From the NCBI GenBank assembly GCA_016713425.1, contig JADJPE010000005.1, forward strand, positions 5,437,532-5,501,531: DNA of 64,000 bases, in the 5' to 3' direction. The notes beneath the pieces were generated by a model, which did no database searches, was not told where the DNA came from, and worked only from the letters and a program-made list of their open reading frames with translations. The stretch's first letter is position 1, and every line of letters starts with the position of its first letter. This document shows, one piece after another, positions 22,070-61,833 of the stretch. The translations under genes and the position numbers were made by a program. The DNA is from Deltaproteobacteria bacterium (GTDB taxonomy: Bacteria > Myxococcota > Kuafuiibacteriia > Kuafuiibacteriales > Kuafuiibacteriaceae).

Positions 22070-24261
22070 GGCCAAACGCGCACCGTCTGCGCTTCCATTC
22101 GGTCGGATGGAAAATCGCCGGTGCGACCGTAGTGGTGGTGACCGCCCTCGCCGCCATCGTGCACGTCGCCGTGAGCCGACGGCACCGTGAGTACATCAAG
22201 GCCGCCAAACAAGACGCGGCCAGGATGGTCATTCAATTGACCGCCGCTGGTCTATCAGCACCCGTTGTCTTTGGCGACACTCAGACCACGCAAGAACAAC
22301 TCGATCTTCTCGAGTCCAATGAAGATGTTCTCTACGCAGGCGCATGGCTGGTGAGCAACGACAAACCGCCCATGCCCACCGAACGGCTCGGCCTATACTA
22401 CCGGCAGGCCCGGACTCCGAGGCGCGGGCATCCTCCGGCATCGCCACGAGAACGCACCACGGAACAAGTCATGAAACCCGACCGCGTACCGGAGCAGATC
22501 GAGCAAAGCTACGGTCAGATGTTGATCTCGACGGCGCCGATCGTCGATCTGAGCGGGCGGACCGTCGGGGTCGTGCAAATCGCCTTCTCTTTGGCGCGCG
22601 AGCGCGCGGCCGATGAGGCAGGCGAACACCAGGCGATCATCTTTTCGGCAACTCTTGCAACTTTTCTTGCCTCGATCCTTCTCCTCTTCGCGCGTTTTGC
22701 AATCATAAGGCCACTACACATGCTTTCGAACGCCGCAAATCGCCTGGAGCGCGGCGAAAGGGCAACCATCGACGTGCAATCGAAGGACGAGATCGGCGAC
22801 CTCGCGACCGCTCTACGTGCGATGTCGAGCGCCGTGCAAGACCGGGAAGCGAAGCTCAAAGCGCGCAACAACGACATGCGATTGATCCTCGACAACGCCG
22901 GCGAGGGTTTCGTGACGGTCACATCTCACGGAAAGATGGCGGACGAACGTTCGAAGATGATCGACGAATGGTTCGGCCCACCCGCGGATGGCGCAACTTT
23001 CTTCGACTTCATAGCAACCGTCGCCGGACAAGAGATCGCCGACTGGATGACGCTCGGATGCGAAGCCCTTCACGATGGATTCCTGCCCCTTCAGGTCGCG
23101 ATCGACCAGCTTCCCAAGCAGTTCTCGCATGACGGGCGTTATTTCGCGCTCGAGTACCGCCCCATCTTGCAGGAAGATGGCACATTTCAGGCGATCTTGG
23201 TGGTCATCCGAAACATCACCGCAGAGGTCGAGTTCAAACGCTCGGAGGCGCTCCAACGAGAGGCCCTTGCCCTATTCCAACACTACGTGCGCAACCGCAT
23301 CGGTCTCATCGATTTCTTCCGCGAATCACGCACCCTCGTCGATGCGATCATCATGCACCGAAAAGACGAGCAAGCGATGCGCCGCAACATCCACACACTC
23401 AAGGGCAACGCCGCCTTGTTTGGCGTCGAACGCATCGCAGAGTATTGCCATCGCCTCGAGTCGAAGTGGTCCGAAGATGATCGGCACCCGAGCACATCCG
23501 ATCTTCAAGAGCTGTCGAATCGATGGCGATCGGTCGAGGAGGTCGTCAGCAACCTGGGCGCCGGCACGGAATCTGAGATTATCATGAGCCGAGAAGAACA
23601 CGCGCGCCTCCTCGCGGCCATTCGGTCACGGCAACCGCACGCCGAACTCGAATCCGCCCTGGGCGCTCTCGCCTACGAGCCGGCGGCGCGACGACTCGCC
23701 GCGATGCGGGAGCAAGTCCTGGCGCTCGGCGAGCGATACGGAAAGCCCGAGATTCAGGTCGAGATCAAGCCCACGCCCCTGCGACTTCCTTCTGCTCGTT
23801 GGGCAAGATTCTGGCCATCGTTGGTTCACATCTTTCGCAACGCGGTCGACCACGGTCTCGAAGACGCGGATGAACGAAGTCGGCTGGGGAAGCCGCCCCA
23901 CGGACGCATCGTGCTCTCGTTCGAGAATGTCGGAGACAAGGTCGTCTTCGCCTTCGAAGATGACGGCCGAGGCATCGCGTGGACCAAGCTCGCGGAGCGT
24001 GCCGCCGAGATCGGGCTCCAGACGACCACCAAGGCGGAACTTGAACAGGCTCTCTACTCGGGCGCGCTCTCCTCGAGGGGAGAGGTCACGGAGCTTTCGG
24101 GTCGAGGCATCGGAATTTCAGCCGTCAATGCGACCATTCAGTCCCTGGGGGGCACGATGTCCATTGCCAGCGAGAGTGGCCACGGAACATCCATCCGGTT
24201 CGCCTTTCCCAGCTCGATGCTGAAGGATGATGCACCGACTCAGGAATCCTCTGCCACCTGA
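22066..24261 (+). CDS. membrane sensor kinase with periplasmic domain-HAMP-PAS-Hpt-HATPase architecture (CheA-like phosphorylation on the Hpt domain; no DHp/H-box or CheW domain)
   Basis: Two TM segments flank a periplasmic domain of about 150 aa. HAMP and PAS follow, then an Hpt motif (HTLKGNAALFG). The HATPase has an N-box (IFRNAVDHG), G1 (DDGRGI) and G2 (GRGIGIS). The start overlaps the stop of the upstream gene. Confidence 0.8.
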   Translation: MRPNAHRLRFHSVGWKIAGATVVVVTALAAIVHVAVSRRHREYIKAAKQDAARMVIQLTAAGLSAPVVFGDTQTTQEQLDLLESNEDVLYAGAWLVSNDKPPMPTERLGLYYRQARTPRRGHPPASPRERTTEQVMKPDRVPEQIEQSYGQMLISTAPIVDLSGRTVGVVQIAFSLARERAADEAGEHQAIIFSATLATFLASILLLFARFAIIRPLHMLSNAANRLERGERATIDVQSKDEIGDLATALRAMSSAVQDREAKLKARNNDMRLILDNAGEGFVTVTSHGKMADERSKMIDEWFGPPADGATFFDFIATVAGQEIADWMTLGCEALHDGFLPLQVAIDQLPKQFSHDGRYFALEYRPILQEDGTFQAILVVIRNITAEVEFKRSEALQREALALFQHYVRNRIGLIDFFRESRTLVDAIIMHRKDEQAMRRNIHTLKGNAALFGVERIAEYCHRLESKWSEDDRHPSTSDLQELSNRWRSVEEVVSNLGAGTESEIIMSREEHARLLAAIRSRQPHAELESALGALAYEPAARRLAAMREQVLALGERYGKPEIQVEIKPTPLRLPSARWARFWPSLVHIFRNAVDHGLEDADERSRLGKPPHGRIVLSFENVGDKVVFAFEDDGRGIAWTKLAERAAEIGLQTTTKAELEQALYSGALSSRGEVTELSGRGIGISAVNATIQSLGGTMSIASESGHGTSIRFAFPSSMLKDDAPTQESSAT

Positions 24262-24574
24262 CACCTCTGGTCGTCGCTCGGGGCCAACGCCCAGCGTTTC
24301 TGATTCGCGATGCGCTCAGCAAGCGCTGGGTTCGTGTTCATGCCACCGCGAATCACACAACTCGACCCAACCCCTCAACGGGGCCCCTGAACGGGCATCT
24401 TGAGGATGTCACCGGAAAACGGTGGGATTGCGGAGTCGACGCCGACGCCGACAATCGACCGCCGACTGCGACAACCGGCAGGGTTTGCAGTCGGCAGCCA
24501 GGCTGAACGATCGTTGACCCTCCGGGGGGCATGTGTCCCCTCCGGGGAGAAGCGCAACGTCATAGAGCCCCACC

Positions 24575-25315
24575 GTGATACGCGCCATTCGTGCCGGGAG
24601 CACCACGCTCTGGGTCGCGAAGTCCCTGCTCAAGGTCAGCAAGCAAGGAATCGGTTCCGGGTCGGTGACCAGCGTTCCCCTGGGCATCAACTGTGGCAGC
24701 GACTGCACCGAGAGCTACGAAGCGGCGACGTCCGTTGTGCTGAAGGCCCAAGCCGCCTCGGGTTCGGAGTTCTCGGGTTGGAGTGGCGGCGGGTGCAGCG
24801 GGAACGAGGCAACCTGCACAGTAGCGATGACCGGAGCCCGTACCGTCACCGCCGAGTTCGCGCTTGCAACCAAGGTGTCTTTTTCCCCGGGAACCATTCT
24901 GATCGAGCAGAACCAATATGCCGAGACCGCCAGGTTCAGGCTGTACATGCAGGCCGATGGAAATCTCGTACTGTACCGGAAGTCGGACGCCACCGTCCTC
25001 TGGTCGAGTGGAACCAGCGGACGAACCTGCAACGACAGCAACGTCTGCAAAGCGAAGTTCCAGGGCTCGTGGTCACCGCCGAAGACGCACGAGTCGCCCT
25101 GCGGTCTACCGTCTAGCGTCTACGCGTCAGGGTCGCGCGGAGCATCACCTTTGATCCCTGCGTATCGGCCTCGGTCGCGACCGCTGTCCGTCCGCGGTCC
25201 ATCACCAACCTGTGCTCCTGAACCATGGGGTCGATCCCGGTGGGAAGGCCGCTGCTCAGGACTTGGACGACCGAAACCGCAAAGTCTCCATCGGTTAAGA
25301 CGCGCTCACACATAG
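24575..25315 (+). CDS. fragmentary protein with a divergent InlB B-repeat domain and a partial bulb-type (mannose-binding) lectin motif; possibly a pseudogene or frameshifted
   Basis: GSGSVTSVPLGINCGSDCTESY...GSEFSGWSGGGCSGNEATCTVAMTGARTVTAEF matches the InlB B-repeat pattern. RLYMQADGNLVLYRKSDATVLWSSGT matches one B-lectin subdomain. Only one of the expected three subdomains is present, no signal peptide is seen, and the C-terminus is junk-like. Confidence 0.3.
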   Translation: MIRAIRAGSTTLWVAKSLLKVSKQGIGSGSVTSVPLGINCGSDCTESYEAATSVVLKAQAASGSEFSGWSGGGCSGNEATCTVAMTGARTVTAEFALATKVSFSPGTILIEQNQYAETARFRLYMQADGNLVLYRKSDATVLWSSGTSGRTCNDSNVCKAKFQGSWSPPKTHESPCGLPSSVYASGSRGASPLIPAYRPRSRPLSVRGPSPTCAPEPWGRSRWEGRCSGLGRPKPQSLHRLRRAHT

Positions 25316-25378
25316 TATGGGTCGAGCGCTCCAGTTGCGCCCTCGATCGACGTCCAGCGCTGACTTGAGCCTAAAAAG

Positions 25379-28300
25379 GTGGTTGGCTCGCAGCCAACCA
25401 TGAAACGCCTCGTCGCATCGCGTCGAAATGACCTCCGCCTCGCCGTGATGTCGAGCTGGCTGTTCGACACCGCGACCCAAGGCTCGGTCCTTGTCGTGGG
25501 CACGACCCGAAGGGCTGCCGACGACTTTGCGCGCGACATTCTGCGCGCGGACGAACGGGGGCGCATAGGTGTCGTCCGGCTCACGCTTCGCCAGCTCGCA
25601 AGAGAGCTTGCTACGCGCGATCTAGCCCGGAGCAAGAAGGGCACCGCCGGTTTCCTCGCTTGCGAAGCGCTCGCCGCGCGATCCGCGCACCAGGCGCAAT
25701 TCCACGGAGGCCTTCGAGCCTTCGCAGCCGCCGCGAAAAGCCCAGGATTCGCGCGGGCGCTTGCCGAGACCATTCGCGATCTGCGTGGGGAAGGAATTGG
25801 CCCGTCCGAACTCGCGCCGCTCGGCCCCGCTGGCGCCGACCTCATGACACTGCTCAAGGCCTACGAAGCAGCGCTCGCCGCCCACAGGCTCGCCGATCCG
25901 AGCGATGTCTTCGAGATCGCGACGACCGTCGTCGAGCGGGGCGAACATCCGTTCGTTGCACGGCCGATCCTCCTCCTCGACGTTGCACCGGCAACGCGCG
26001 CCGAAGAACGCTTCGTCGGCGCACTCAGCAATGCGAGCCCTTCGGTCCTGGCCGGCGCGCTTCGCGGCGACGACGACGGCATCGCCCGCCTCGAAGCGGC
26101 GCTCGGCGTTCGCGCCGAGTACCTCGAAGATATTGACCTCGTCGATCCGGTCCGCGTTCCATCGGACGGCCCGGATGAAAGCCGCCGCGGGCGGGCCCTC
26201 GAGCGGGCGCAAGCAAGGACCTTCAGGGCGCTTCCCCGCGACGAGGTCGCGGTCGTTCCGCCGGAGGCGGAGCCAGAGGACCACTCGTTCGAGCTGTTCG
26301 CCGCAAGCGGCGAGTCGGCGGAGGTGCTCGAGATCGCGCGTCGCATCCTTGTCGCCGCGCGCCAAGAAGGCGTCGCATTCGACGAGATGGCCATCCTCCT
26401 GCGCCACCCGTCCATCTACGAACCGCTCATCGAAGAGACGTTGCGGCGCGCGGACATACCGGCCTTCTTCACCCAAGGGACCCGGCGACCGCAAACGAGC
26501 GGACGTGCGCTCCTGGCCTTGCTGGCGTGTGCGGGGGAGCGCTTGTCGGCCCGGCGGTTTGCGGAGTACCTGTCCCTCGGGCAGGTACCTCCGCTCGACG
26601 CTGAGGCCAAACCGAAACCAAGGACCGTGCCTTGGGTCGCGCCCAAGGATGATATCCAGCTCGTCTTTGCGACCGATGTGTTCGAGCCCCACGAACAAAC
26701 CGACGAACAAACCGACGAACAAGCGGTCCCCGAAGCCTCGGAGCGAGATCCCCGAGGCTCGCCTCACCCCAATATTCGGCCGCATGGTCGACCCGAGGCG
26801 TCAACGCGACGAGACAACGACGAAGGCCCCGAGAGCGCCGGGACGCTCCACACACCGCGGTCTTGGGAGCATCTGCTCGTCGATGCAGCCGTCATTGGGG
26901 GCCGCGATCGGTGGGTGCGCCGTCTTCGCGGCCTCGAACAGGAGTTCCAGGCCCAGATTCGGGCGCTCGAGGTCGAGGATCCGGTGCGCGCACGCAAGAA
27001 GCAGGATGATCTCGAACGTCTTCGAAACCTCGAAGGCTTCGCGCTCCCAGTCATCGATTTCTTGGCCGCGATGCCGAGCGCGGCGCCCTGGGGTGTATGG
27101 CTCGACCACCTCGATGCGCTCGCCGGCATGGCGCTTCGACATCCGGAACCCGTGCTTGCGGTCCTGGCGGAGCTGCGCCCGATGGCGGACGTCGGACCGG
27201 TCACGCTTCGTGAGGTCCGCGAGGTCCTGACGCGGCGCCTAAAGAACGAACGCGTACCCACCGGCGGCCAACGTTTCGGTCGCGTCTTCATCGGCCATCT
27301 CGAGGAAGCCGCGGGCCGGGCCTTTCACACGGTCTTCGTGCCCGGCCTTACTGAGGGTCTCTTTCCCGAGAAGGCCTTTGAGGATCCTTTGCTCCTCGAT
27401 CAGGCGCGAATCGAAATCGCCGGGCCGTCCTTCGCACTTCGCCCGCAGCGCGTGCGCCACGAGCGGCACATGCTGAGGCTCGGCCTCGGCGCAGCACGCG
27501 AGAAGCTCGTGGTCTCCTATCCAACGGTCGACTTGGCCGAGGGCAAGGGCCGCGTTCCGTCCTTCTACGCGCTCGAGATCCTTAGGGGTGCCGAGGGTCG
27601 CGTCCCGTCGCTTCGGGGTCTCGAACAACGCGCCCAGTCATCGGCGTCGAACCGGCCGGGCTGGCCGGCCCCCAGATCGCCAGAGACCGCGGTCGACGAT
27701 GCGGACTACGATCTTTCCATCATCGGTGCACTTCGCGATCTACCTTCCGATGAGATCGGAGGACGAGGCCGCTATCTCATCGAAGGCCACGACGGCGCAC
27801 CCCCGAACGACAGCCTCGTTCGAAACCTGCGTGCACGCGCACAGCGCTTTCGACATCGCTTCTCCGGCGCGGACGGTCTTTGGCTCGACGACGACAACGC
27901 ACATCTCGTCGCGGCGCTTGCCGCGCGCCGTCCGACGGAGCGCGCCTATTCTGCAACATCGCTTCAGACCTTTGCCGCATGTCCCTATCGATTCCTGCTC
28001 CACGCCCTCCATGGCCTAAGGCTACGCGAGGATTTCACGACGGTCGAGTCGCTCGATCCGCTGACACGCGGCAGCATCTACCACGACGTCCAGTTCGATC
28101 TATTCTTCGCGCTCAAAGCGCAAGGGCTCTTGCCCGTCAACGAGGCGCGCCTCGAACCCGCGACCCGAGTCCTCGACCGGGTCGTGCGCGAGGTCTTCGC
28201 TCGTTATGAAGAACGACTCGCGCCCGCGATCCCTCAGATCTTTGCTCGCGAAACGCAGGCGCTGCACCAGGACATCAACCAGGCCCTGCACGTCGAGGCC

Positions 28301-28864
28301 GCGCGGAGCAGCGACTGGCGTCCCATCCACGCCGAGCTCGCGTTTGGGCTGGCCGACGAGCTCGAACGACGCGACCCCGAGAGCCGGCCAGAACCGATCC
28401 AGATCCTTTCTCGCTTCCTCGTGCGTGGCAGCGTGGATCTCGTCGAAGAGCACCACACGTCGGGTCATCTTCGCATCACAGATCACAAGACGGGGCGCCT
28501 CCCGAAGCCACCACCCCGCTACGTGGGAGGCGGCGAGCATCTGCAGCCGCTCCTTTATGGTCTCGCCATGGAGGCCCGCTTGGGCAAGCCCGTCCAAAGC
28601 GGACGTCTGAGCTACGGGACCGAGCGCGGACAATTCGACGCGATCGAGGTCGAGATCAACGCGTCGTCGCGTGGGTCCTTGGGTCAGGTTCTCGAAACGA
28701 TCGACGACGCCGTCGCGAGTGGTCGCTTGCCGGCTGCGCCCCAACTCGGAAAATGCAGCTACTGCGACTATCGACCCGTTTGCGGAACGCACGAGGAGCA
28801 ACGGGTGCAGCGCAAGGATATGAGTCAACTTGCCGCGCTCGAGGCGCTGCGCGCGCTCCGGTAG
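25379..28864 (+). CDS. addB: AddB-type helicase-nuclease subunit (RecB-family nuclease with Fe-S cluster; degenerate N-terminal ATPase)
   Basis: A 1161-aa ORF. The C-terminal nuclease motif (ITDHKTG) and the Cys cluster (GKCSYCDYRPVCG, CxxCx5C) are as in AddB. The N-terminal P-loop is degenerate (VVGTTRRAAD). The gene lies upstream of an AddA-like gene. Confidence 0.8.
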   Translation: MVGSQPTMKRLVASRRNDLRLAVMSSWLFDTATQGSVLVVGTTRRAADDFARDILRADERGRIGVVRLTLRQLARELATRDLARSKKGTAGFLACEALAARSAHQAQFHGGLRAFAAAAKSPGFARALAETIRDLRGEGIGPSELAPLGPAGADLMTLLKAYEAALAAHRLADPSDVFEIATTVVERGEHPFVARPILLLDVAPATRAEERFVGALSNASPSVLAGALRGDDDGIARLEAALGVRAEYLEDIDLVDPVRVPSDGPDESRRGRALERAQARTFRALPRDEVAVVPPEAEPEDHSFELFAASGESAEVLEIARRILVAARQEGVAFDEMAILLRHPSIYEPLIEETLRRADIPAFFTQGTRRPQTSGRALLALLACAGERLSARRFAEYLSLGQVPPLDAEAKPKPRTVPWVAPKDDIQLVFATDVFEPHEQTDEQTDEQAVPEASERDPRGSPHPNIRPHGRPEASTRRDNDEGPESAGTLHTPRSWEHLLVDAAVIGGRDRWVRRLRGLEQEFQAQIRALEVEDPVRARKKQDDLERLRNLEGFALPVIDFLAAMPSAAPWGVWLDHLDALAGMALRHPEPVLAVLAELRPMADVGPVTLREVREVLTRRLKNERVPTGGQRFGRVFIGHLEEAAGRAFHTVFVPGLTEGLFPEKAFEDPLLLDQARIEIAGPSFALRPQRVRHERHMLRLGLGAAREKLVVSYPTVDLAEGKGRVPSFYALEILRGAEGRVPSLRGLEQRAQSSASNRPGWPAPRSPETAVDDADYDLSIIGALRDLPSDEIGGRGRYLIEGHDGAPPNDSLVRNLRARAQRFRHRFSGADGLWLDDDNAHLVAALAARRPTERAYSATSLQTFAACPYRFLLHALHGLRLREDFTTVESLDPLTRGSIYHDVQFDLFFALKAQGLLPVNEARLEPATRVLDRVVREVFARYEERLAPAIPQIFARETQALHQDINQALHVEAARSSDWRPIHAELAFGLADELERRDPESRPEPIQILSRFLVRGSVDLVEEHHTSGHLRITDHKTGRLPKPPPRYVGGGEHLQPLLYGLAMEARLGKPVQSGRLSYGTERGQFDAIEVEINASSRGSLGQVLETIDDAVASGRLPAAPQLGKCSYCDYRPVCGTHEEQRVQRKDMSQLAALEALRALR

Positions 28865-28897
28865 TCGGATGCTGACTGCCGCCACGAGGACACCAAC

Positions 28898-30076
28898 ATG
28901 ACATGCGCCGATGGGAATGCACTGGGTCTAGCGCTGCTGCACGAACTGGAAGACGCCCTTCGCACGATCCTGACCGGACGCTACGCGTACGAGGATCGCA
29001 CGCCGCCCTCCGACCCGGAAGCAGACGAGACGCTCGCCCCCGGTCGACCATCGCGTTTGCCCACGGCTTTGGAATGGATCCGCGACGTCTTTGTCCCGCG
29101 CCAGAGGGCTCAGCTCGACCGAACGCGTTTCGTCGCGCCCGAGCCTTGGGTTTCCGCGATCGTAAGCCGGATCAACCGAACGGACACGTCCGAGTTTCTT
29201 CGACGGTTGGACCGCTATCAAAACTGGCTGATGTGCAACGCGGAGAACCGCGGTTCGGCGAGCCCAGCTGGCGCCGATTCCAACGCCGAATCCGCGTCAG
29301 GGTCCGGGCCCGAGTCGATCCAGCAGCCCACGCCCATCCTCGACGCCCTCGACGCCCTCGACACCCTCGACACCCTCGACACCCTCGACACCCTTGACAT
29401 CCTCGACACCCTCGATGCCATCGAAGCCCTCGAAGCGGAGCTCGCCGCGCTGGGTTGCCATCAGCGGCCGTTGGTACCAGCGTGCCACGAGGAGGCTTCG
29501 CATCTTGGTGTCGAGGATTATGTCGCCGCTGTCGTCCTGCCCGCCGCTCGCGCCCACGCCCACGCTCGCGCCCGCGGCGAAGATCCGCCCTCCGCAAGCG
29601 CGGTCGTGTGCGGTCTCGACGGACTATGCCAGGAGCTATCGCACTTCGAATCGGGGCGGCGTCTCGAAGCATTGCTCCGCACGCTGGCCCACTCGGTCGG
29701 CGCACCGCTGCCCGAAGCCGTACCGAAAGGACCTGCGCACTACGGGATCGTCACATTCTCGCCGGCGTTGGTCGACCGCACCATCCATGAGGTCGTCGTT
29801 GCCCGGCAGAGGACCCTGAAGATCCCCGGCTACGCGCGCGGGAAGGCGCCGTCCGCGGTGGTGCTGGCCGCACACTGGAACGACATTTCCGAAGAGGCAA
29901 CGCGCCGTCTGCTGCTTTGTTTGGGAGGCGAGCAGGTCTTCTTCGCTCTCGAACCGCTTGCGCAAGGGGTTCCGTTTCGGGTCGCCCTCGAGTTGCTCTT
30001 CGACGATCCGCACAAGTTCGAAGCCCGACTCGCAGAGGTCGGTGCCGAAGTCTGCGCGGAGTTCGAAATGATCTGA
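28898..30076 (+). CDS. hypothetical protein with a (D-A/T-L)n repeat, encoded between addB and addA
   Basis: A 392-aa ORF containing DALDALDTLDTLDTLDTLDILDTLDAIEALEAEL, encoded by a 9-bp tandem repeat (ctcgacacc)n at about 29340-29410. No recognisable domain. Confidence 0.45.
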   Translation: MTCADGNALGLALLHELEDALRTILTGRYAYEDRTPPSDPEADETLAPGRPSRLPTALEWIRDVFVPRQRAQLDRTRFVAPEPWVSAIVSRINRTDTSEFLRRLDRYQNWLMCNAENRGSASPAGADSNAESASGSGPESIQQPTPILDALDALDTLDTLDTLDTLDILDTLDAIEALEAELAALGCHQRPLVPACHEEASHLGVEDYVAAVVLPAARAHAHARARGEDPPSASAVVCGLDGLCQELSHFESGRRLEALLRTLAHSVGAPLPEAVPKGPAHYGIVTFSPALVDRTIHEVVVARQRTLKIPGYARGKAPSAVVLAAHWNDISEEATRRLLLCLGGEQVFFALEPLAQGVPFRVALELLFDDPHKFEARLAEVGAEVCAEFEMI

Positions 30077-30156
30077 AGAGCCGAAGCTCGCAGCCTGGGC
30101 GACAAACATCCCGGCCCAAACGCGGCTTGCCAGGGTTCTGCGCTGGACGCCATAAA

Positions 30157-33100
30157 GTGCACGTGCAAAACAACGAATCGCCACCCGACCGCGATCCAGG
30201 CCGGCTCGACGCCGAAGCACGCGCCGCGATTCGGCACCGCCTCGATGAGAGCCTACTGGTCGAGGCTGCAGCCGGCACCGGGAAGACCACCGCCCTCACC
30301 GAGCGCATCGTCGCCCTCATTCGCACCGGCCGGGCCACGGTCGACCAGATCGTCGCTGTCACCTTCACGCGAAGAGCAGCCGGCGAACTCAAGCTGCGTC
30401 TTCGCGAAGCGCTCGACTTGGGCCGACTGACCGCGGACCTCCCCGACGGTGAGCGCGTTCGCCTTGAGACCGCGCTCGCCCGGCTCGAGGAGGCACATAT
30501 CGGCACCATCCACGCCTTCTGCGGTGAAATTCTTAGAGAGCGGCCCATAGAAGCCGGAATCGATCCGCGATTCGAGGAGATCACCGACGGCGCCGACAAT
30601 CCGCTCTTCGCGGAGGCTTTCTCGCGCTGGTTCGAAGCGAAGCTTGCGGCGCCACCACCAGGGCTCGCCCGCATCCTCGCGCGTAAGCCGACAACCTTCG
30701 ACCTCTCGCCGCCGTCCGTTCGCCTTCGTAGCGCAGCCTGGATGCTCGCCGAATGGCGTGACTTTCAGACGCCCTGGCGTCGTCCCGCCTTCGATCGAGT
30801 GGCCATGATCGATGCGCTGACCCACGAAGTCCTCGATGTCGCAGACGACAGTGCAAAGGCCGAATCAACGAAGGACGCGTTGTATGAAGGCCTTCGGGAA
30901 ACGAGGCGTTTCGCGTCTTGGTGGCGGGCGGCATCCGCCGTCACCGCGAACGCGCCGGTCACCGCCCACGCGGCCGTCACCGCCGTGAGCACCGACGCCG
31001 TCACCCCCGCTGAACGCGATCATGCCGACGCCGGGTCGCTCCTCGACGAGCGGGAGGTTCGCCTGTTCGCAGTGCTCTCAGGACTCAAGAAAGAGAAGAA
31101 GAAAGGAACGGGTCGCTACGGTGGACCGGGGACCCGCGAACAGCTCCTCCGCAAGAAGGAGGCCTTGGTCGAGCGCTTGGCCGCATATCAGATCGTCGCC
31201 GAGGCCGAGCTCGCAACGCTGCTTCGAAGCGAGCTCCAAGAGGTCGTGGAGGGCTACGACGCACTGAAACGGGAGGCGGGCAAGCTGGACTTCATGGATT
31301 TGCTGCTCTTCACGCGAGGATTGCTGAAAGGGAACCCGCTCGTTCGCGAACATCTTCAGGCGCGATACACGTACATCTTCGTCGATGAGTTTCAGGACAC
31401 CGACCCTCTGCAAGCGGAGATCCTTCTCCTCCTAGCGGCCGCAGATCCTTCGACCGAAGACTGGCGCGAGACCCACCCGAGAGCCGGGAAACTCTTCTTG
31501 GTCGGGGACCCCAAACAGTCCATCTATCGTTTCCGTCGGGCCGATGTGCTGTTCTACCACGACGTCAAATCGCACCTCGCATCGCGCGGCGTCGTCGTCC
31601 TCGAACTTTCTCGCAGTTTTCGCGCAACGCAGCCGATCCAAGCTGCGCTCAATGCGGCTTTCGCCCCCGAGTTCCTCTATGACGAGGTAAGCGGACAGCC
31701 CGGATACATGCCCATGACCGGCGGTCCGCCCTCAGAGACCGAGACCGCCGCGCCGCCGGCGCTGATCGCGCTTCCGGTGCCGCACCTGCACGGGCGCTAC
31801 GCGGGCATCTTCCGTGGTACCGTCGAACGCGCTCAGCCGGCCGCCATCGCAAGCTTCGTGCGCTGGATGCTGGAGGACAGCCAGTGGCGGATCCGCGATC
31901 TCGTCGAGCCCTCGAAATACCGAGCCATCGCACCGAGCGACGTCGCGATCTTGTTCCGCCGCTACGTTTCCTTTGGCCGGGACATCACCCGCGATTACGC
32001 CCAAGCGCTCGAGAATCAGAAGATCGCGCATGTACTCGTCGGTTCCCGTTCGTTTCATCAACGGGAGGAGGTCTTGGCGTTGCGGGCCGCCGCGACGGCC
32101 ATCGAGTGGCCGGAAGACGAGCTCTCGGTCTTCGCGACACTGAAAGGGCCCTTCTTTTCGATCTCCGACGACCTTCTTTTCCGCCATCGGGCGGGCGGCC
32201 ATCCATTCGACCCCCTCAAGGCCCGGGCGCTTTCGCGACGGTTCTCGGAGGAACTGAACGTATCCCTAGGCGTCAAAGCCCGCGAAAACCTCGAGGCACA
32301 CGAAGACCTCGGAGGACACGAAGACCTCGCGCCCGTCTGGCGGGCGCTCACCTTGCTCGCGGACCTTCACGACGCGCGGAACGACCGTCCCGTCGCCGAC
32401 GTGCTTAGCCAGCTCCTGTCGGCGACGCGCGCCCACGCGGGCTTTGCGCTTAGGCAGACGGGTCACCTCGTGCTCGCCAACATCCAACATGTCATCGACC
32501 GCGCGCGAGCCTTCGAGATGCAGGGAGGGCTCTCATTTCGCGGCTTCGTAGATCGTCTCGCCGCCGAAAGTGAGAGCACATCGTCGGCCGACGCGAGCCA
32601 CGTTGAGGAGCAAGCGGAAGGCGTCCGAATCATGACCGTGCACGCCGCGAAGGGCCTAGAGTTTCCGGTCGTCATCCTGGCCGACCTCACGAACCCGATC
32701 GCGCACGAGGTTCCGGATCGTTTCATCGACCCCAAGCGCCAGCTTTGGGCGGCCCGCATCCTCCAGTGCGCGCCGATCGACCTCTTGGAGCATGCCGCCG
32801 AAGAACGGCGACGCGATGAGGCTGAGGGCATCCGTCTCGCGTATGTCGCCGCAACTCGAGCGCGCGACGTGCTGGTCGTGCCTGGAATCGGCGAAGGCCC
32901 ACGCGGCCTGTTCTGGGAGAGCGACAAGCGAAGCTGGCTCGCCCCGCTCGATCGCGCGATTTACCCGCCGACCAGCGCATTCAGCGCCGCATCCCCCTCG
33001 CCGAAGTGCCCGCCGTTCGGGCGCAACACAGTGCTCAGCGTACCGGAGAGCGGACACCCATCGCCCCAGATCCGACCCGGCGTCCACGCGATCGAATCCG

Positions 33101-33807
33101 GGGACGTCGTCTGGTGGGACGCGGCGCTCATCGCCGATGTCCCGGCCCCAACCGCCGGTCTTCACGACGAGTCGTTTCTGGCCAAGAACCCGCCCCATGC
33201 GGACCGAGCGGCGCTTTCGGTCACGCGCTATCAGGCGTGGCAATCGGATCGGACGTTGGCGCTCGAGCAAGGAGGGCGCCTGTCGAAATCCGTTCTCTCA
33301 CCGAGCGAGACGGACGTCGACCCACCCTCGCCCTTCAAATCCTCCATCGAGGTTATCCGGCTCCCGGGCGCAGCCGCCGAAGGACGTCGTTTCGGCACCC
33401 TCGTTCACGCGATCGCTCGCGACGCCGCGTTCGATGAAGAGGCGTCCATGGTTCTGGCCCTCGCCGAACACCACGGTCGAACCCTGGGTGCAAGCCGCGC
33501 TGAGGTCGAGGCGGCGCGCGACACGATCGCACGCCTCCATCGGCACGAGATCATTCGCCGCGCCCACGCGGCTTCGGTCTGTCATCGAGAGCTTCCGGTG
33601 CTCGTCACGACCGAGGACGATGAGGTCGTCGACGGCGCGGTCGATCTCGTCTTCGAGGAAGGCGCGTTATCGATCGTGGTCGACTTCAAGACCGGCCGCT
33701 TCGATGCGGAACGCGAAGAGAAGAGCCGACGGCAGCTCGCCTGGTACTGCTACGCCCTCGAGCGGACGACTGCTCGCCCTGCGCGGGGCATCATTCTCGT
33801 CCTGTAG
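30157..33807 (+). CDS. addA: AddA-type ATP-dependent helicase/nuclease (UvrD-like helicase with a C-terminal PD-(D/E)XK nuclease)
   Basis: Walker A (AAAGTGKT) and UvrD motifs (VTFTRRAAGELK; DEFQDTDPLQ) are present. The C-terminal nuclease motif is (G)AVDLVFEE...VVDFKTG. Likely GTG start at 30157 or 30163 (in frame with ORF 29917..33807). Confidence 0.85.
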   Translation: MHVQNNESPPDRDPGRLDAEARAAIRHRLDESLLVEAAAGTGKTTALTERIVALIRTGRATVDQIVAVTFTRRAAGELKLRLREALDLGRLTADLPDGERVRLETALARLEEAHIGTIHAFCGEILRERPIEAGIDPRFEEITDGADNPLFAEAFSRWFEAKLAAPPPGLARILARKPTTFDLSPPSVRLRSAAWMLAEWRDFQTPWRRPAFDRVAMIDALTHEVLDVADDSAKAESTKDALYEGLRETRRFASWWRAASAVTANAPVTAHAAVTAVSTDAVTPAERDHADAGSLLDEREVRLFAVLSGLKKEKKKGTGRYGGPGTREQLLRKKEALVERLAAYQIVAEAELATLLRSELQEVVEGYDALKREAGKLDFMDLLLFTRGLLKGNPLVREHLQARYTYIFVDEFQDTDPLQAEILLLLAAADPSTEDWRETHPRAGKLFLVGDPKQSIYRFRRADVLFYHDVKSHLASRGVVVLELSRSFRATQPIQAALNAAFAPEFLYDEVSGQPGYMPMTGGPPSETETAAPPALIALPVPHLHGRYAGIFRGTVERAQPAAIASFVRWMLEDSQWRIRDLVEPSKYRAIAPSDVAILFRRYVSFGRDITRDYAQALENQKIAHVLVGSRSFHQREEVLALRAAATAIEWPEDELSVFATLKGPFFSISDDLLFRHRAGGHPFDPLKARALSRRFSEELNVSLGVKARENLEAHEDLGGHEDLAPVWRALTLLADLHDARNDRPVADVLSQLLSATRAHAGFALRQTGHLVLANIQHVIDRARAFEMQGGLSFRGFVDRLAAESESTSSADASHVEEQAEGVRIMTVHAAKGLEFPVVILADLTNPIAHEVPDRFIDPKRQLWAARILQCAPIDLLEHAAEERRRDEAEGIRLAYVAATRARDVLVVPGIGEGPRGLFWESDKRSWLAPLDRAIYPPTSAFSAASPSPKCPPFGRNTVLSVPESGHPSPQIRPGVHAIESGDVVWWDAALIADVPAPTAGLHDESFLAKNPPHADRAALSVTRYQAWQSDRTLALEQGGRLSKSVLSPSETDVDPPSPFKSSIEVIRLPGAAAEGRRFGTLVHAIARDAAFDEEASMVLALAEHHGRTLGASRAEVEAARDTIARLHRHEIIRRAHAASVCHRELPVLVTTEDDEVVDGAVDLVFEEGALSIVVDFKTGRFDAEREEKSRRQLAWYCYALERTTARPARGIILVL

Positions 33808-33809
33808 CT

Positions 33810-33865
33810 CTCGTCTTATAGGTCTTGTCTTATAGATCTCGTCTTATAGATCGCGTCTTGCGAAC
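33810..33865. repeat. about 14-bp tandem repeat (CTCGTCTTATAGAT x3-4), AT-rich for this genome, immediately after the addA stop
   Basis: Read directly: ctcgtcttataggt cttgtcttatagat ctcgtcttatagat cgcgtcttgcgaac. It lies in the convergent gap between addA and the SDR gene. Confidence 0.6.
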
Positions 33866-33882
33866 GGCGAGCGAGGTCTTGA

Positions 33883-34659
33883 TCACATGGAGAGGCCACC
33901 ATCAACATCGATCGTCCGACCGGTGAAATAGTCACAGGCGATAATGAACCTCACGGCTTCCCAGATGTCTTCCGGCAAGCCCACTCGACCGACGGGAACC
34001 ATATTCACGAGCGCGTCACGCGCCTTCTGATTCATGCCTTGGATCATCGGCGTCTCGATCATGCCGGGCGCAACCGCTCCGACGCGAATGCCGAAACGCG
34101 CAAACTCGAGCGCCCACGTTCGGGTATTGGCCGCAATCGCAGCCTTCGTCGCCGCGTAGCTCGTCTGACCTCGATTCCCGTACCGCGCGATCGACGACAT
34201 GTTCACGATGACGCCTTTTTGGTCGGTCGCGATCATCTTCGCCACGGTCTCTCGGACCATGAAGGTCGCGCCCGTCAGGTTGACGGCAAGCGTGGCATGC
34301 CAGGCCGCCTCGTCGAGCGTTACCACTTCGCCTGTCTCTCGATCTTTTCGAACCATCAGACCGTCGCGCAAGATACCTGCGTTATTGATGAGCCCCGTCA
34401 AGCCGCCCATCGCTTCCGAGGCCCAATCAACGAATGCTTTGAGATCCGAGATCTTCGAGACGTCGAGCGGCCGGCTGAAGACCTGACCGGGCAGCCCGCG
34501 GCACGATTCCTTGACGGCCTCGAGACCTTCGGGCTGAACGTCTCCGACCGCCACGGACGCGCCGGATTCCGCAAGACGCTGGACGAAATGGCGGCCCATG
34601 CCCTGGGCACCACCCGTGACGATCAGCCTCATATTCTCGAGCTTCATGAGAGGACTCAT
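33883..34659 (-). CDS. SDR family oxidoreductase (FabG-like 3-oxoacyl reductase)
   Basis: TGGAQGMG cofactor motif, NNAG, and the catalytic S...YxxxK (SSIARYGNRGQTSYAATKAA). The ORF extends to 34776 through an (EEKGL)4 repeat, but the Met at 34659 or 34647 just before the Rossmann fold is the more plausible start. Confidence 0.85.
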   Translation of the reverse strand: MSPLMKLENMRLIVTGGAQGMGRHFVQRLAESGASVAVGDVQPEGLEAVKESCRGLPGQVFSRPLDVSKISDLKAFVDWASEAMGGLTGLINNAGILRDGLMVRKDRETGEVVTLDEAAWHATLAVNLTGATFMVRETVAKMIATDQKGVIVNMSSIARYGNRGQTSYAATKAAIAANTRTWALEFARFGIRVGAVAPGMIETPMIQGMNQKARDALVNMVPVGRVGLPEDIWEAVRFIIACDYFTGRTIDVDGGLSM

Positions 34660-34684
34660 AGCGCCCGAGCCGCGCCAAGGCCAG

Positions 34685-34744
34685 CCCTTCTCTTCAAGAC
34701 CCTTCTCTTCAAGACCCTTCTCTTCAAGACCCTTCTCTTCGAGA
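34685..34744. repeat. 15-bp tandem repeat x4 (CCCTTCTCTTCAAGA) in the divergent region between the SDR gene and plsC
   Basis: Four near-perfect copies are visible. It encodes EEKGL repeats only if the upstream alternative SDR start is used. Confidence 0.6.
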
Positions 34745-34790
34745 TCGTTCCCCGCGGAACCTTCTCTTCGCGACACCTCTTTGACTGTGC

Positions 34791-35558
34791 GTGCTCAAGT
34801 GCGATAGGCGGGCCGTCGTGTGGTCAACCGTCGTGAAGCTCACCGCCGGCATGCTGTTCCTCGGAGTCATGATGACGGTTGGGTTGGTGCTGCTCCTCGT
34901 GCTCTTGCCTTCTCGAGTGGCGCGCATCCGGCTCACCAATGCTTTTGGGCACGTGGTTGGCCGCGGCATCATGTGGATCTCGCGGTGCCCGATCGTCGTC
35001 GAGGGCCTTGAGAACCTTCCGCCCGGCCGCCCGGTGATCTTCTGCGGCAACCATACGTCCATCTTCGATGCCTTCACGTCCATCTGGCTGACCCCGCTCG
35101 GCACGGTCGGCGTCGCCAAGAGGCAGATCCTCTACTACCCATTCTATGGGGTCATCTTCTGGCTGGCGGGTCACGTTCTCGTCGATCGAGGGCGCACGGA
35201 GCGAGCGAAGCGAGATCTCGAGGACATCAGCCGCTTTCTGCTGCGACATCGGCTTCACATCTTCATGTGGCCGGAAGGGACGCGCGCGGCAGACGGTCGA
35301 CTCAGACCTTTCAAGAAAGGGATAGGCCATCTCGCGCTCAACACCCGGAACCCGATCATGCCCATGGTCACGGTGGGGGCGCATCAAGCCTGGGTGAAGT
35401 CGGGGCTTAGGCTCAGCAAGGTTCCCATCTCGATTCGCTTCCTGCCGCCGATCGAAACCTCATCGTGGGCCCTCGAAACGCTCGACGCACACCTCGAAGC
35501 CCTGCATCAAACGTTTCGCGCCGCGCTTCCGGCCGAGCAACGGCCGGTTTCCACCTGA
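34791..35558 (+). CDS. plsC: 1-acyl-sn-glycerol-3-phosphate acyltransferase (LPLAT family)
   Basis: The HX4D motif (NHTSIFD) and PEGTR motif are present, together with an N-terminal TM anchor. Confidence 0.85.
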   Translation: MLKCDRRAVVWSTVVKLTAGMLFLGVMMTVGLVLLLVLLPSRVARIRLTNAFGHVVGRGIMWISRCPIVVEGLENLPPGRPVIFCGNHTSIFDAFTSIWLTPLGTVGVAKRQILYYPFYGVIFWLAGHVLVDRGRTERAKRDLEDISRFLLRHRLHIFMWPEGTRAADGRLRPFKKGIGHLALNTRNPIMPMVTVGAHQAWVKSGLRLSKVPISIRFLPPIETSSWALETLDAHLEALHQTFRAALPAEQRPVST

Positions 35559-35600
35559 CCCTGACCCTGACCCTGAGCCTGAGCCTGACTCTGACGCCTC
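35554..35600. repeat. hexanucleotide repeat (CCTGAC/CCTGAG) of about 8 units that exactly fills the convergent gap between plsC and lgt
   Basis: Read directly from the sequence. Confidence 0.6.
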
Positions 35601-36693
35601 AACCCTGAGGCGAAAGCATAACTTCGACCGCCTCAGCCGCCGAACGAAGCGGGCGTCGGCGGCGAAGTCTCGCGTATGCGAAGATCCCAATCGGGATGAG
35701 GAAAAGGGCGACCGTCTGGGTCGTGGAGAGGATCAACGGGTCGTCGGTCGGATATCGGAACGCGAACTGCCGCTCCGGGTCGCCCCGCACCAGTTCAACC
35801 AGGAACCGGCCGAACGGATAGAGGACGAGATACGCGGCCGTTACCATGCCCGGTACCGTCTCGCGCTGGCGGTGAAGCCAAAGCAGCGTGAACCCGACGG
35901 CGAAACACATGACGACGGAGTAGAGCTGCGTCGGATGCACATGAGGCGTCCACGCGTCGGGCGCGATGCGGCCCTCGGTGGCGAAAACGAACTGCGCGAT
36001 GCTTCCGGGCGGGAACGATACCCCCACCGAGGCACTCGTCTCCCGCCCGTAACAGCATCCCGCCAAGAAGCAACCGATTCGACCGATGCCGTGGCTCAGC
36101 GCGACGCCAAGGACCAGGGCATCGAGCGACCCAAGCCCAAGCCCTCGTCGTCGCAGGTACAGCATCGTGAACACGAGCGCCGCGATCGCCCCACCGATGA
36201 ACGCCATACCGCCATCCCAGAAGGTAAGCGCCGCGAGCGGCGTCGCTTCGTAGTCGCTCCAGTTGACGACGACGTGAAGAAGGCGCGCACCGATCGCGGC
36301 CGCCAATCCGCCGTAGATCCAAATCGACAAGATCTGATCACTCGTCAGCCCTGCCCGCACGCCGAAGTGACGCTGCACGAGAAAGCAGACCATCATCCCG
36401 AGCACAACCATCAACCCCCACGATCTAAGGGGGATCGCAAAGTTCTCAGGCAGCCGGGCGGGCGTGATGAACGCCGATATGAGCACGAAGCTGACAGCCA
36501 CGAAACCGACGCCCATCACGAGCGCACGCCCGAGGTACGCGCGCCCGTGCTCGCGGCAGCCGTCGAAGACGATGAAGCCTCCGAGCAAGACGCTCACGAC
36601 GTACGCCACGAGGCGGAGCGTCTCTGGAGTGGAGGTCAGGGTAAGAAATGTCGGAAACACAGGCGAGCCGAAGCTAGCGCGCTCGGTCGCCAT
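35599..36693 (-). CDS. lgt: prolipoprotein diacylglyceryl transferase
   Basis: The Lgt signature (GRIGCFLAGCCYG) is present in a multi-TM protein of 364 aa. Confidence 0.9.
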   Translation of the reverse strand: MATERASFGSPVFPTFLTLTSTPETLRLVAYVVSVLLGGFIVFDGCREHGRAYLGRALVMGVGFVAVSFVLISAFITPARLPENFAIPLRSWGLMVVLGMMVCFLVQRHFGVRAGLTSDQILSIWIYGGLAAAIGARLLHVVVNWSDYEATPLAALTFWDGGMAFIGGAIAALVFTMLYLRRRGLGLGSLDALVLGVALSHGIGRIGCFLAGCCYGRETSASVGVSFPPGSIAQFVFATEGRIAPDAWTPHVHPTQLYSVVMCFAVGFTLLWLHRQRETVPGMVTAAYLVLYPFGRFLVELVRGDPERQFAFRYPTDDPLILSTTQTVALFLIPIGIFAYARLRRRRPLRSAAEAVEVMLSPQG

Positions 36694-36927
36694 CGTGAAG
36701 GGCGAAAGATCCGATCTGAGATGTCCGTCCCGCTCTCGGTTCTCGGTCTCGATCTCGGTCTCGATCTCGGCGTGAGCCGTTCATGGCGCATCGGCCGCGG
36801 CGAGCCCACCTTAAGGGCGCCGACCGTCCAGAGCCCATCCCGGTCTGGCGTGGGCGAGCGTGTGGTGCGAGGCCCCCCCGGCCCACGAATTGATTCGCCC
36901 CGACCGCTTGGGCATCATGGCGTCGAC

Positions 36928-37560
36928 ATGATCGCCCTCGCGTGGAACCTTTTCATCGACGAGTCCATCGCTTCACGAGCGATGCGCGGCTTTCGTCGCC
37001 CTGCTGTCCCTCGGCCGCTCCGCGTTGTGAGCCCCGTGGGTCTCCTCGGTCTCCTCGGTCTCCTCGGCCTCGGGGGGGGCGCGACCGGGTGCGAACAGGT
37101 GCCGAAGGAGGCCGCGCCGGTCGAGTCGGGCGACACGTTTAGATACGCGTTCGTCGTCAGCGCAGGCCCCTCATCGAGCCAGTATTTCGCGACGGTCAAC
37201 TTGACCGTCGAGGGTCCGAACGCTATCCGGCTCGACTCTGACCCCCCGCTCGGCCAGGACCCGGTCGTCGCGAACAAGGCCTTATCGGCGCGACGCCTCA
37301 TTCCCATGCATTCGCTCGGCATGTTGTGGCTTCCTACGCAACAGCGACACATCGGCGCACCGACCGATGTGGGCACAGTGCAAAGGGAGCGCGCGTTCGG
37401 CGGCTACGCGACCTACGTCATTCCGCAACCCGGGCAACTCACCAACGAACGGTACTACGACCAAGCAACGGGCTTCTTGGTCGGCTACCAAGTCAATGCA
37501 CCATCGGGTCCAACGACGTGCACACTGCTCGAGAGCTCGATCGAAGGCCTCTCGCGCTGA
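36928..37560 (+). CDS. putative lipoprotein (hypothetical)
   Basis: Signal peptide with a (GLL)n hydrophobic core and a lipobox-like GGATGC. Possible starts are 36928 or the later Met MRGFRRP at about 36988. The N-terminal 1 kb of the track ORF 35872..37560 is antisense to lgt and was rejected. Confidence 0.45.
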   Translation: MIALAWNLFIDESIASRAMRGFRRPAVPRPLRVVSPVGLLGLLGLLGLGGGATGCEQVPKEAAPVESGDTFRYAFVVSAGPSSSQYFATVNLTVEGPNAIRLDSDPPLGQDPVVANKALSARRLIPMHSLGMLWLPTQQRHIGAPTDVGTVQRERAFGGYATYVIPQPGQLTNERYYDQATGFLVGYQVNAPSGPTTCTLLESSIEGLSR

Positions 37561-40541: not shown

Positions 40542-40751
40542 GCGGCCCACGATTGCGCCTGAGGCGCAGGTCTCCACTGTCTCACCACGACGGGCGCCTC
40601 CGTCTCATGCAACAAGCCAGTATGTTCCCGGGGGGTGGATCTCCGCGTCTGCTTCCTCTCGTTCTCCTTCTGGCCCGATTCTTGAGGCTCTTGTTCCCAG
40701 GTGTTCCGATTCACCTGTCTCAAGCACCTGTCTCAAGAGAGAGGACTGCCC

Positions 40752-44837: not shown

Positions 44838-45557
44838 ATGGACTACGTCGACCGTGCCCCCGGACGACGCGATGCGGTGGCGGTCGCCCTCGTCGCCCGC
44901 GAAGTCGAGACCCCAGCCGCTTTCATCTCCACGGCCCCTTCTGCGGCCCCTTCTGCGGCCCCTTCTGCGGCCCCTTCTGCGGCCCCTTCTGCGGCCCCTT
45001 CTGCGGCCCCTTCTGCGTCCACTTCTGCGTCCACTTCTGCGTCCACTTCTGCGGCCCGCTGGACCACCGCGTCCGCCGCAAGCCCCGTCCCCCGGGTCAA
45101 GGTTCTGCTCCGAAAGCAGGCTCGGTATCCGGTGCACCTCGTCACGGGGCAGATTCTCTGTACCGAAGTCGTGGCCGGCATCATCGAGGGCGACGAGGCC
45201 CCCGAAGCCGCGGCAGTTCGTGAAGTCCTCGAAGAGACAGGCATCGCGGTCGATCGGGCCGACGTAACCTGTTTGGGCCCCGCCGTCTTCGCCAGCCCAG
45301 GCATGCTCACAGAACGCTTTTTTCCAATGATGGTGGAGATCCCGACCGCGACCCTCGAACACCTACCTCAGCTGCGACCCGCGGGTGACGGCAGCCCGAT
45401 GGAGGAAGGCGCGGTCCTCCTCGTTGCGACGCTCGAACAAGCACTTAAGGCCACCCTTCATCCGGTCGAGACGAAGGAGGGTCGCCTACACGTGAACGAT
45501 GCCAAGACCGAGATCGTGCTCAACAGGGTGTGGCGGCATCTTACCGGTCTTTCGTGA
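44838..45557 (+). CDS. NUDIX hydrolase with an internal (PSAA)n / (STSA)n repeat insertion
   Basis: The Nudix box (GIIEGDEAPEAAAVREVLEETGI) is present. An in-frame 12-bp tandem repeat encodes APSAAPSAAPSAAPSAAPSAAPSASTSASTSASTS. The start is uncertain (the ORF opens at 44661). Confidence 0.6.
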   Translation: MDYVDRAPGRRDAVAVALVAREVETPAAFISTAPSAAPSAAPSAAPSAAPSAAPSAAPSASTSASTSASTSAARWTTASAASPVPRVKVLLRKQARYPVHLVTGQILCTEVVAGIIEGDEAPEAAAVREVLEETGIAVDRADVTCLGPAVFASPGMLTERFFPMMVEIPTATLEHLPQLRPAGDGSPMEEGAVLLVATLEQALKATLHPVETKEGRLHVNDAKTEIVLNRVWRHLTGLS

Positions 45558-55439: not shown

Positions 55440-55450
55440 GGCGTCCCGCC

Positions 55451-55528
55451 GACCGCAGCCCCAGACCGCAGCCCCAGACCGCAGCCCCAGACCGCAGCCC
55501 CAGACCGCAGCCCCAGACCGCAGCCCAT
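55451..55528. repeat. 13-bp tandem repeat x6 (GACCGCAGCCCCA) between the aminotransferase stop and the ttcA start
   Basis: Five perfect copies and one degenerate copy. The unit length is not a multiple of 3, so the repeat is unlikely to be coding. Confidence 0.7.
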
Positions 55529-55552
55529 AAGACCGCGAGCCTCGATTCGTCG

Positions 55553-61653: not shown

Positions 61654-61689
61654 CGCCCCCTCGAGCGATTGAGGCGCGGTCACACCTTC

Positions 61690-61833
61690 TCGGCCGCTAT
61701 CGCTTTCTTGGCCGCTATCGCTTTCTTGGCCGCTATCGCTTTCTCGGCCGCTATCGCTTTCTCGGCCGCTATCGCTTTCTCGGCCGCTATCGCTTTCTCG
61801 GCCGCTATCGCTTTCTCAACAGCTATCGCCTTC
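61690..61833. repeat. 18-bp tandem repeat x8 (GGCCGCTATCGCTTTCTY) in the convergent gap between the hypothetical ORF and rlmN
   Basis: Seven near-identical copies and one degenerate copy, read directly. There are no interspersed spacers. Confidence 0.75.

Follow-up and report, generated by a model that had tools for sequence, protein, structure and literature searches.

A probable lineage-restricted gene with a trigger-factor-like domain between the addB-like and addA-like genes of a member of the Myxococcota

Introduction

AddAB-type helicase-nucleases are obligate complexes of two gene products, and we know of no accessory protein that works with them. The genes of the two subunits are usually found together; in fact, addA and addB are colocalised in 20 of 21 Firmicutes and in 13 of 13 Proteobacteria (PMC1193525). 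A second known system that bears on the present locus is trigger factor, whose signature GFRxGxxP docks on the ribosomal protein L23 (PMC5722895). Here, we report on a 64-kb stretch of contig JADJPE010000005.1 (assembly GCA_016713425.1, a deltaproteobacterium placed in the Myxococcota), referred to below as the window and numbered from its first nucleotide (nt), in which an open reading frame (ORF) of 392 codons, here named mid, stands between an addB-like and an addA-like gene. This ORF is probably a real gene, restricted to its lineage and encoding a protein whose C-terminal part resembles the ribosome-binding domain of trigger factor, and it seems to be a passenger in the addBA operon rather than a component of AddAB. 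The features on which the argument is built are the following.

25400..28864, + strand: addB-like gene; no Walker A in the helicase-like N-terminal region, C-terminal PD-(D/E)XK nuclease, four iron-sulfur (Fe-S) cysteines
28865..30156, no strand: 1292-nt insert that separates the addB stop from the addA start; missing from all 33 related loci
28886..28890, + strand: GAGGA, Shine-Dalgarno-like, 7 nt upstream of the mid ATG (read from the sequence)
28898..30076, + strand: mid; 392 amino acids (aa), 42.5 kDa, isoelectric point (pI) 4.86; probable protein-coding gene, restricted to its lineage
29057..29098, + strand: conserved N-terminal block LPTALEWIRDVFVP, at the same residue number (54) in mid and in its homologue P0124
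29338..29433, + strand: 9-nt tandem repeat CCTCGACAC, 10.7 copies, in frame, encoding (LDA/LDT)n; absent from P0124
29747..30073, + strand: trigger-factor-N-like domain, resembling the N-terminal ribosome-binding domain of trigger factor
29819-29851, + strand: signature-like loop KIPGYARGKAP, within the C-terminal domain of mid
30163..33807, + strand: addA-like gene; UvrD-type superfamily 1 (SF1) helicase with a C-terminal PD-(D/E)XK nuclease

The junction of addB and addA

Three same-strand ORFs fill positions 25379-33807, and in the first-pass annotation of this DNA the middle one was described as overlapping the start of addA. This overlap turned out to be an artefact of upstream ORF extension: the third ORF as listed, 29917-33807, begins at a TTG that is merely the maximal upstream extension of the addA frame. 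The deposited AddA (MBK8013820.1, 1214 aa, 100% identical) starts at 30163, and the N-termini of AddA orthologues align from about 30163, so that the real start of addA can be placed at 30157-30163, position 30157 being the other possible start, a GTG. On this basis mid ends 80-86 nt before addA, and the spacer between addB and mid measures 33 nt. On the other side of the insert, the first ORF as listed spans 25379-28864, the deposited AddB (MBK8013818.1, 1154 aa, exact match) starts at 25400, and its C-terminus is collinear with those of its orthologues and ends at the equivalent residue. With both the AddB C-terminus and the AddA N-terminus collinear with relatives, the insert is placed exactly between two intact genes.

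The arrangement was compared with a sample of 80 loci with AddA relatives, taken from one-genome-per-species assemblies, together with the four contigs that carry the closest AddA proteins. In the 33 loci in which both genes are detectable, the gap between addB and addA is estimated at -674 to +175 nt, as against 1292 nt here, and none of the 33 leaves room for a gene between the two. In the four nearest relatives (L001, L083, L085 and L086, whose AddA proteins have 48-50% identity) there is a 4-nt overlap between the called genes (GTGA or ATGA), and tblastn detected a mid-like sequence in none of the fetched related loci. The suggestion that mid might be a third subunit had been made in the first-pass annotation, which had also named direct adjacency of addB and addA in related genomes as evidence to the contrary. 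Adjacency, near-adjacency or overlap is what the 33 related loci display, with no orthologous addB-X-addA triplet among them, and the contig of the homologue of mid carries no addAB. Judged from these gene neighbourhoods, the insertion is lineage-specific and mid is not a conserved subunit of AddAB; a conserved accessory subunit is likewise unsupported, because in the relatives addB and addA adjoin and the homologue of mid has no addAB neighbour.

The insert has a GC content of 0.654, like its flanks, in a window of ~65% GC as a whole, and a recent foreign arrival is unlikely because its GC content and codon usage are native. Neither terminal inverted repeats nor target-site duplications were found around it, no repeats exceeding chance-length matches, and no integrase, transposase or recombinase gene was found with it. 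Just after the addB stop, a sequence that might be left over from the ancestral addB/addA junction (GGATGCTGAC... compared with GGATGCCGTGAC...) was rejected as a vestige, about 12-14% of random windows scoring equally. As for transcription, no promoter-like site was detected in 24200-34400 and no Rfam family in 24000-35000, and the sole plus-strand terminator-like match near the junctions, at 29976-29992, is weak and lies within mid, the total count of such matches being under the shuffle expectation. Since the genes share one strand, are separated by short spacers and have no promoter-like or convincing terminator-like site between them, addB, mid and addA are most likely co-transcribed.

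Evidence that mid is a protein-coding gene

Seen from its sequence, mid is probably a real protein-coding gene, and the strongest indication of this is its homology to a second protein. When 1.84 billion representative proteins were searched exhaustively with phmmer, one credible homologue was returned, P0124 (364 aa, E 4.7e-4), a hypothetical protein encoded at 556-1650 of the Logan contig SRR22388231_1941875 (locus L002, 3491 nt). The alignment of the two proteins is collinear over residues 54-367, and its halves are significant separately (E 3e-6 for the N-terminal and E 4e-9 for the C-terminal one). Composition cannot account for the match, because the contig of P0124 has a low GC content. 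mid and P0124 share the block LPxxLxW[IV]R[DE]xFVP at residue 54, and in both a trigger-factor-like domain with KIPGYxRGxAP lies at the C-terminus; unlike mid, P0124, which belongs to a low-GC organism and shares 22-26% identity with it, has neither the (LDT)n repeat nor the linker rich in serine, glycine and alanine. The 3.5-kb contig of P0124 holds sparse small ORFs without family matches, and neither addB nor addA is found on it. The other phmmer matches (P0121, P0122, P0123 and P0125-P0127) were set aside as compositional, since they lie mostly on the (LDT)n or low-complexity stretch.

Further searches enlarged this family very little. A word-indexed search of 5.8 billion clusters gave nothing with the mid sequence alone and only P0124 with a two-sequence profile, scans of JGI metagenomes and IMG/VR and a tblastn search of plasmids found no member of the family, and a degenerate DNA pattern for KIPGYxRGxAP matched 18 loci, 17 of them by chance and one in a genuine trigger factor. 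mid is thus nearly family-less, with two members found among about 15 billion predicted proteins, an orphan status that is partly a sampling effect.

The codon statistics point in the same direction as the homology. The GC content at the three codon positions is 0.725/0.489/0.753 in mid, 0.759/0.489/0.740 in addB and 0.717/0.481/0.761 in addA, and a codon-usage model, for which 11 confident genes of the window served as the training set, gives the best likelihood to the sense frame of mid (-3.856, versus -3.904 for the antisense), with a margin as small as that of addB. The coding-like character that the first-pass annotation had attributed to mid is therefore confirmed, as codon-position GC and codon usage match those of the neighbours; of the combination that it had regarded as fatal, no homologues and non-coding codon statistics, neither part was found, mid having one homologue and coding-like statistics. 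The ORF occupies 91% of the insert, and its internal repeat keeps the reading frame because the period is 9 nt. Stop-free runs of at least 392 codons, the observed run being of 403, appear in 2 of 5000 mononucleotide shuffles and in 75 of 5000 first-order Markov simulations, and ORF length alone is only modest coding evidence. The accessions of the neighbouring proteins run ...816, ...817, ...818 and then ...820; the skipped ...819 therefore leaves one annotated protein between AddB and AddA, presumably MBK8013819.1. Of the insert, 12 candidate ORFs and start variants were looked up by exact match in a 15-billion-protein collection, and none of them is present there.

Two other interpretations of the ORFs in the insert were considered and discarded. 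A read-through or fusion of addB into mid, suggested by their common frame and by the single TAG between them, is not favoured, as AddB ends like its orthologues and one frame in three matches by chance. The antisense ORFs at 29172-29705, 29636-30220 and 29751-30674 have codon statistics typical of antisense frames.

Regions of mid and its trigger-factor-like domain

In agreement with the first-pass annotation, which had recognised no domain in mid, no match above curated cut-offs was obtained for the protein in Pfam, NCBIfam, PHROGs or PADLOC, and residues 1-280 match nothing there. The protein can be divided into regions. Residues 1-115 are helical in a low-confidence full-length AlphaFold2 (AF2) model, with a predicted local distance difference test (pLDDT) score of 48; residues 116-145 form a Ser/Gly/Ala-rich linker; and residues 146-185 hold the (LDA/LDT)n repeat, a segment with a pI of 4.05. 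The (LDT)n repeat is a recent expansion.

The last ~110 residues resemble the N-domain of trigger factor, a likeness suggested by individually weak but concordant evidence from profiles, sequence comparison and structure prediction. The Pfam family Trigger_N (PF05697, cut-off 22.2 bits) scores 16.4 bits on the whole of mid and 18.6 bits on its C-terminal fragment, and it passes the cut-off on P0124 with 34.4 bits. When a profile of mid and P0124 was compared with PDB sequences, all nine matches were N-domains of trigger factor, and it was at the signature loop that they aligned. For residues 275-392, AF2 gave a model with a pLDDT of 69.6, a predicted template modelling score (pTM) of 0.64 and the order beta-alpha-loop-alpha-beta-beta-alpha-beta; a Foldseek search of the PDB with this model gave trigger factor N-domains as the nine best matches (E 0.009-0.24, template modelling (TM) scores 0.34-0.48). 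In comparison with the signature GFRxGxxP, the loop GYARGKAP of mid keeps the first glycine, an aromatic residue, the second glycine and the proline, while the signature arginine is replaced by alanine. A genuine trigger factor from a metagenome (L091, 8224-8787, Trigger_N 120.6 bits) has KIPGYRRGKAP, with tyrosine in place of phenylalanine, and the aromatic position therefore varies naturally. No FKBP peptidyl-prolyl isomerase (PPIase) or Trigger_C match was found in mid, and the tig equivalog reaches 12 bits where its cut-off is 180. That mid is itself a trigger factor was rejected: the trigger-factor-like domain occupies the wrong end, PPIase and substrate-binding domains are lacking and the signature arginine is absent.

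Interpretation of the insert

We think it reasonably probable that mid is a real gene and a passenger in the addBA operon, and that it is not an AddAB component. In such a course of events, mid would have been inserted exactly between the addB stop and the addA start, leaving both genes intact, and the ancestral 4-nt overlap, presumably accompanied by translational coupling, would have been replaced by the spacers of 33 nt and of 80-86 nt. Its product would be an acidic protein with an N-terminal helical region, as the low-confidence model has it, an (LDT)n repeat linker and a C-terminal domain homologous to that of trigger factor. Because of this C-terminal domain only, the most likely activity would be protein docking of the trigger factor type, either at the ribosome exit port via L23 or by dimerisation, and not DNA processing. 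Among the three options offered by the first-pass annotation, an inserted passenger is accordingly the best supported, a conserved third subunit falls away and a regulator or accessory protein of local importance survives only as a rival. Several points weigh against the passenger reading, and against the gene and the domain on which it is built. mid, with five start variants tried, is absent from the 15-billion-protein collection in which its neighbours are present; it has a single homologue, found with a modest library-wide E-value; the full-length AF2 model is poor, and mid's own Trigger_N score remains under the Pfam cut-off; the Foldseek TM scores are below 0.5 and come from a moderate-confidence model built on two sequences; the best non-self AddA match is 50% identical, there being no closer relative in the collections searched; and the position within the operon, weak evidence for a link to AddAB, is discounted by this reading.

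That position is the core of the alternative in which mid is a lineage-specific accessory or regulator of AddAB, for example a dedicated chaperone for assembly or an acidic protein that modulates the nuclease, kept in place for a fixed proportion of the products. In its favour, mid lies within the operon of two obligate-complex products, whose genes are colocalised in 33 of 34 genomes (PMC1193525), in the orientation of its neighbours and separated from them by short spacers that hold no terminator; with its native codon usage it is not a recent foreign arrival; and the protein is acidic, in particular in the repeat segment. However, the arrangement is missing from all 33 related addBA loci, the sole homologue is not beside addAB, mid has no domain related to nucleic acids or to AddAB, and the acidic repeat is a recent expansion absent from P0124, with similar repeats throughout the window, and we hold this alternative to be unlikely. 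It would be more improbable still, and quite speculative, for mid to be a dedicated ribosome-docking factor that, at the exit port, chaperones or tethers nascent AddB or AddA, or tunes the output of AddAB; if true, AddAB-type enzymes would have their first accessory protein, and the ribosome-binding module of trigger factor would have been put to a new use.

A different doubt concerns the ORF itself, which might be spurious or decaying, the insert being a non-coding spacer or a dead remnant that stays open in a 65% GC genome. The observed length is reached in 1.5% of first-order Markov simulations, the codon-usage margin over the antisense is small, the protein is missing from a collection containing its neighbours, and much of it is low-complexity or repetitive sequence with a low-confidence full-length model. 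These observations have to be set against a homologue that is collinear over its full length, comes from an organism whose composition is very different and has two blocks each significant by itself, a trigger factor domain on which the evidence of three methods converges, a ribosome-binding site at the right distance, an equally small codon-usage margin for addB and accession numbers that leave exactly one protein between AddB (...818) and AddA (...820), and we hold a spurious ORF to be distinctly unlikely. The phage proteins that inhibit RecBCD-type enzymes are typically small and acidic, and the acidity of mid, together with an insertion in one lineage only, could thus suggest that mid is cargo which a mobile element or a phage left in the addBA operon, an anti-nuclease protein resembling a DNA mimic being one example. 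This origin is highly improbable: there are no inverted repeats, no target duplications as direct repeats and no integrase or transposase, GC content and codon usage are the same as in the host genes, and PHROGs, PADLOC, IMG/VR and plasmids gave no match.

If mid is a passenger, it would offer a small example of a tightly coupled two-subunit operon that tolerates an insertion exactly at the junction of its subunits; the protein would also reuse the ribosome-binding domain of trigger factor in a new architecture. Binding of mid to ribosomes or to AddAB, if shown, would matter more, and the present evidence does not go in that direction.

The AddAB-type pair

The flanking genes had been assigned to the AddB and AddA types in the first-pass annotation, and the domain matches and motifs uphold this. 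PF12705 matches residues 857-1135 of AddB at 105 bits and residues 1074-1207 of AddA at 35.4 bits; AddA also matches PF00580 (193.5 bits) and PF13361 (68.5 bits). In AddB the position expected for a Walker A motif is occupied by VLVVGTTRRA. The remaining motifs, all taken from the translations, are as follows.

27971-27994, + strand: FAACPYRF, carrying the fourth Fe-S cysteine of AddB
28436-28495, + strand: nuclease motif of AddB, DLVE...ITDHK
28754..28783, + strand: CxxCx5C motif CSYCDYRPVC, with three of the four Fe-S cysteines of AddB
30268-30291, + strand: Walker A of AddA, AAGTGKTT, intact
31384-31401, + strand: DEFQDT of AddA
33640-33696, + strand: nuclease motif of AddA, VDLVFEE...VVDFK

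The scores of the curated equivalogs are far lower than their cut-offs: addB_Gpos gives 73.5 bits on AddB (cut-off 903.7), and on AddA addA_Gpos gives 235.3 bits (cut-off 707.65) and addA_alphas 232.9 bits (cut-off 860.75). By predicted architecture the two proteins are an AddB/AddA-type pair outside the curated equivalogs. The nearest relatives, 44-50% identical, come from metagenome-assembled genomes (MAGs) labelled Acidobacteriota, Myxococcota and similar, and the pair falls in a divergent clade common to Acidobacteriota and Myxococcota MAGs. With 1154 and 1214 aa, AddB and AddA are 50-90 aa longer than the nearest relatives (1068-1104 and 1136-1151 aa, respectively), and this extra length is partly due to lineage-specific tandem-repeat insertions. 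A role of the pair other than housekeeping recombination, raised in the first-pass annotation, gained no support, the PADLOC matches being generic ones to UvrD and Cas4-like domains.

Tandem repeats and neighbouring sequence

Short tandem repeats are unusually abundant in the window, with 39 rows in the output of Tandem Repeats Finder, many of them in coding sequence and with periods that are multiples of three; the (LDT)n repeat of mid fits this genome-wide repeat habit. Examples are listed here.

26691-26722: tandem repeat in addB
30936-30984 and 32283-32329: tandem repeats in addA
40038-40237, 42179-42241, 44932-45057 and 61687-61837: other tandem repeats in the window

A 14-nt tandem repeat (TCTCGTCTTATAGA, 4.6 copies, 33795-33859) runs from the last codons of addA through the intergenic region, toward a gene for a short-chain dehydrogenase that is convergent with addA (33883-34776, minus strand). 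At 55451-55526, a perfect tandem repeat of 13 nt (GACCGCAGCCCCA, 5.8 copies, 100% matches) begins 15 nt after the start of the ORF 55436-56485; a change in its copy number would shift the frame, because the period is not a multiple of three. The ORF 40701-42638 contains two arrays of a 126-nt unit (41822-42163 and 42291-42632, 2.7 copies each) with a perfect 12-nt repeat (5.2 copies) between them, and the consensus of the 126-nt unit, translated by eye, is rich in cysteine, ends in Q-x-W and is reminiscent of ricin-type lectin repeats.

Upstream of addB, 1.1 kb (24262-25399) separate it (MBK8013818.1) from an Hpt kinase gene (MBK8013817.1) and have no protein accession. In this interval the ORF 24575-25315 matches the InlB B-repeat family PF18998 (E 4.6e-10) and, by eye, has a lectin-like segment, after which the translation degenerates as if frameshifted; the stretch may be a pseudogene or contain an assembly indel. 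Downstream of the pair, a plus-strand ORF of 562 codons without a Pfam match (35872-37560) overlaps lgt on the minus strand (35599-36693, PF01790). Its sense and antisense codon statistics tie, and positions 35500-36750 have a strongly positive AT skew (0.2-0.3); the ORF, or at least its 5' end region, is probably a shadow ORF.

Comparison with known systems

In comparison with trigger factor (Tig), the likeness of mid is limited to one domain: residues ~284-392 match positions 17-71 of Trigger_N with the same predicted order of secondary structures, and PGYARGKAP stands in register with GFRxGxxP. Unlike in trigger factor, this domain is C-terminal instead of N-terminal, and alanine takes the place of the signature arginine.

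The known helicase-nucleases used for comparison are AddAB of Bacillus subtilis (and RexAB) and the alphaproteobacterial AddAB. Like them, the locus has the order addB then addA, an AddA that is a UvrD-type SF1 helicase with a Walker A motif and a C-terminal RecB-type nuclease, and a helicase-like AddB with a C-terminal PD-(D/E)XK nuclease and the C...CxxCx5C Fe-S motif. Unlike them, it has an AddB without a Walker A motif and scores far under the cut-offs of the NCBIfam equivalogs and, unlike its nearest AddAB relatives, it has a gene-bearing insert of 1292 nt in place of the 4-nt overlap.

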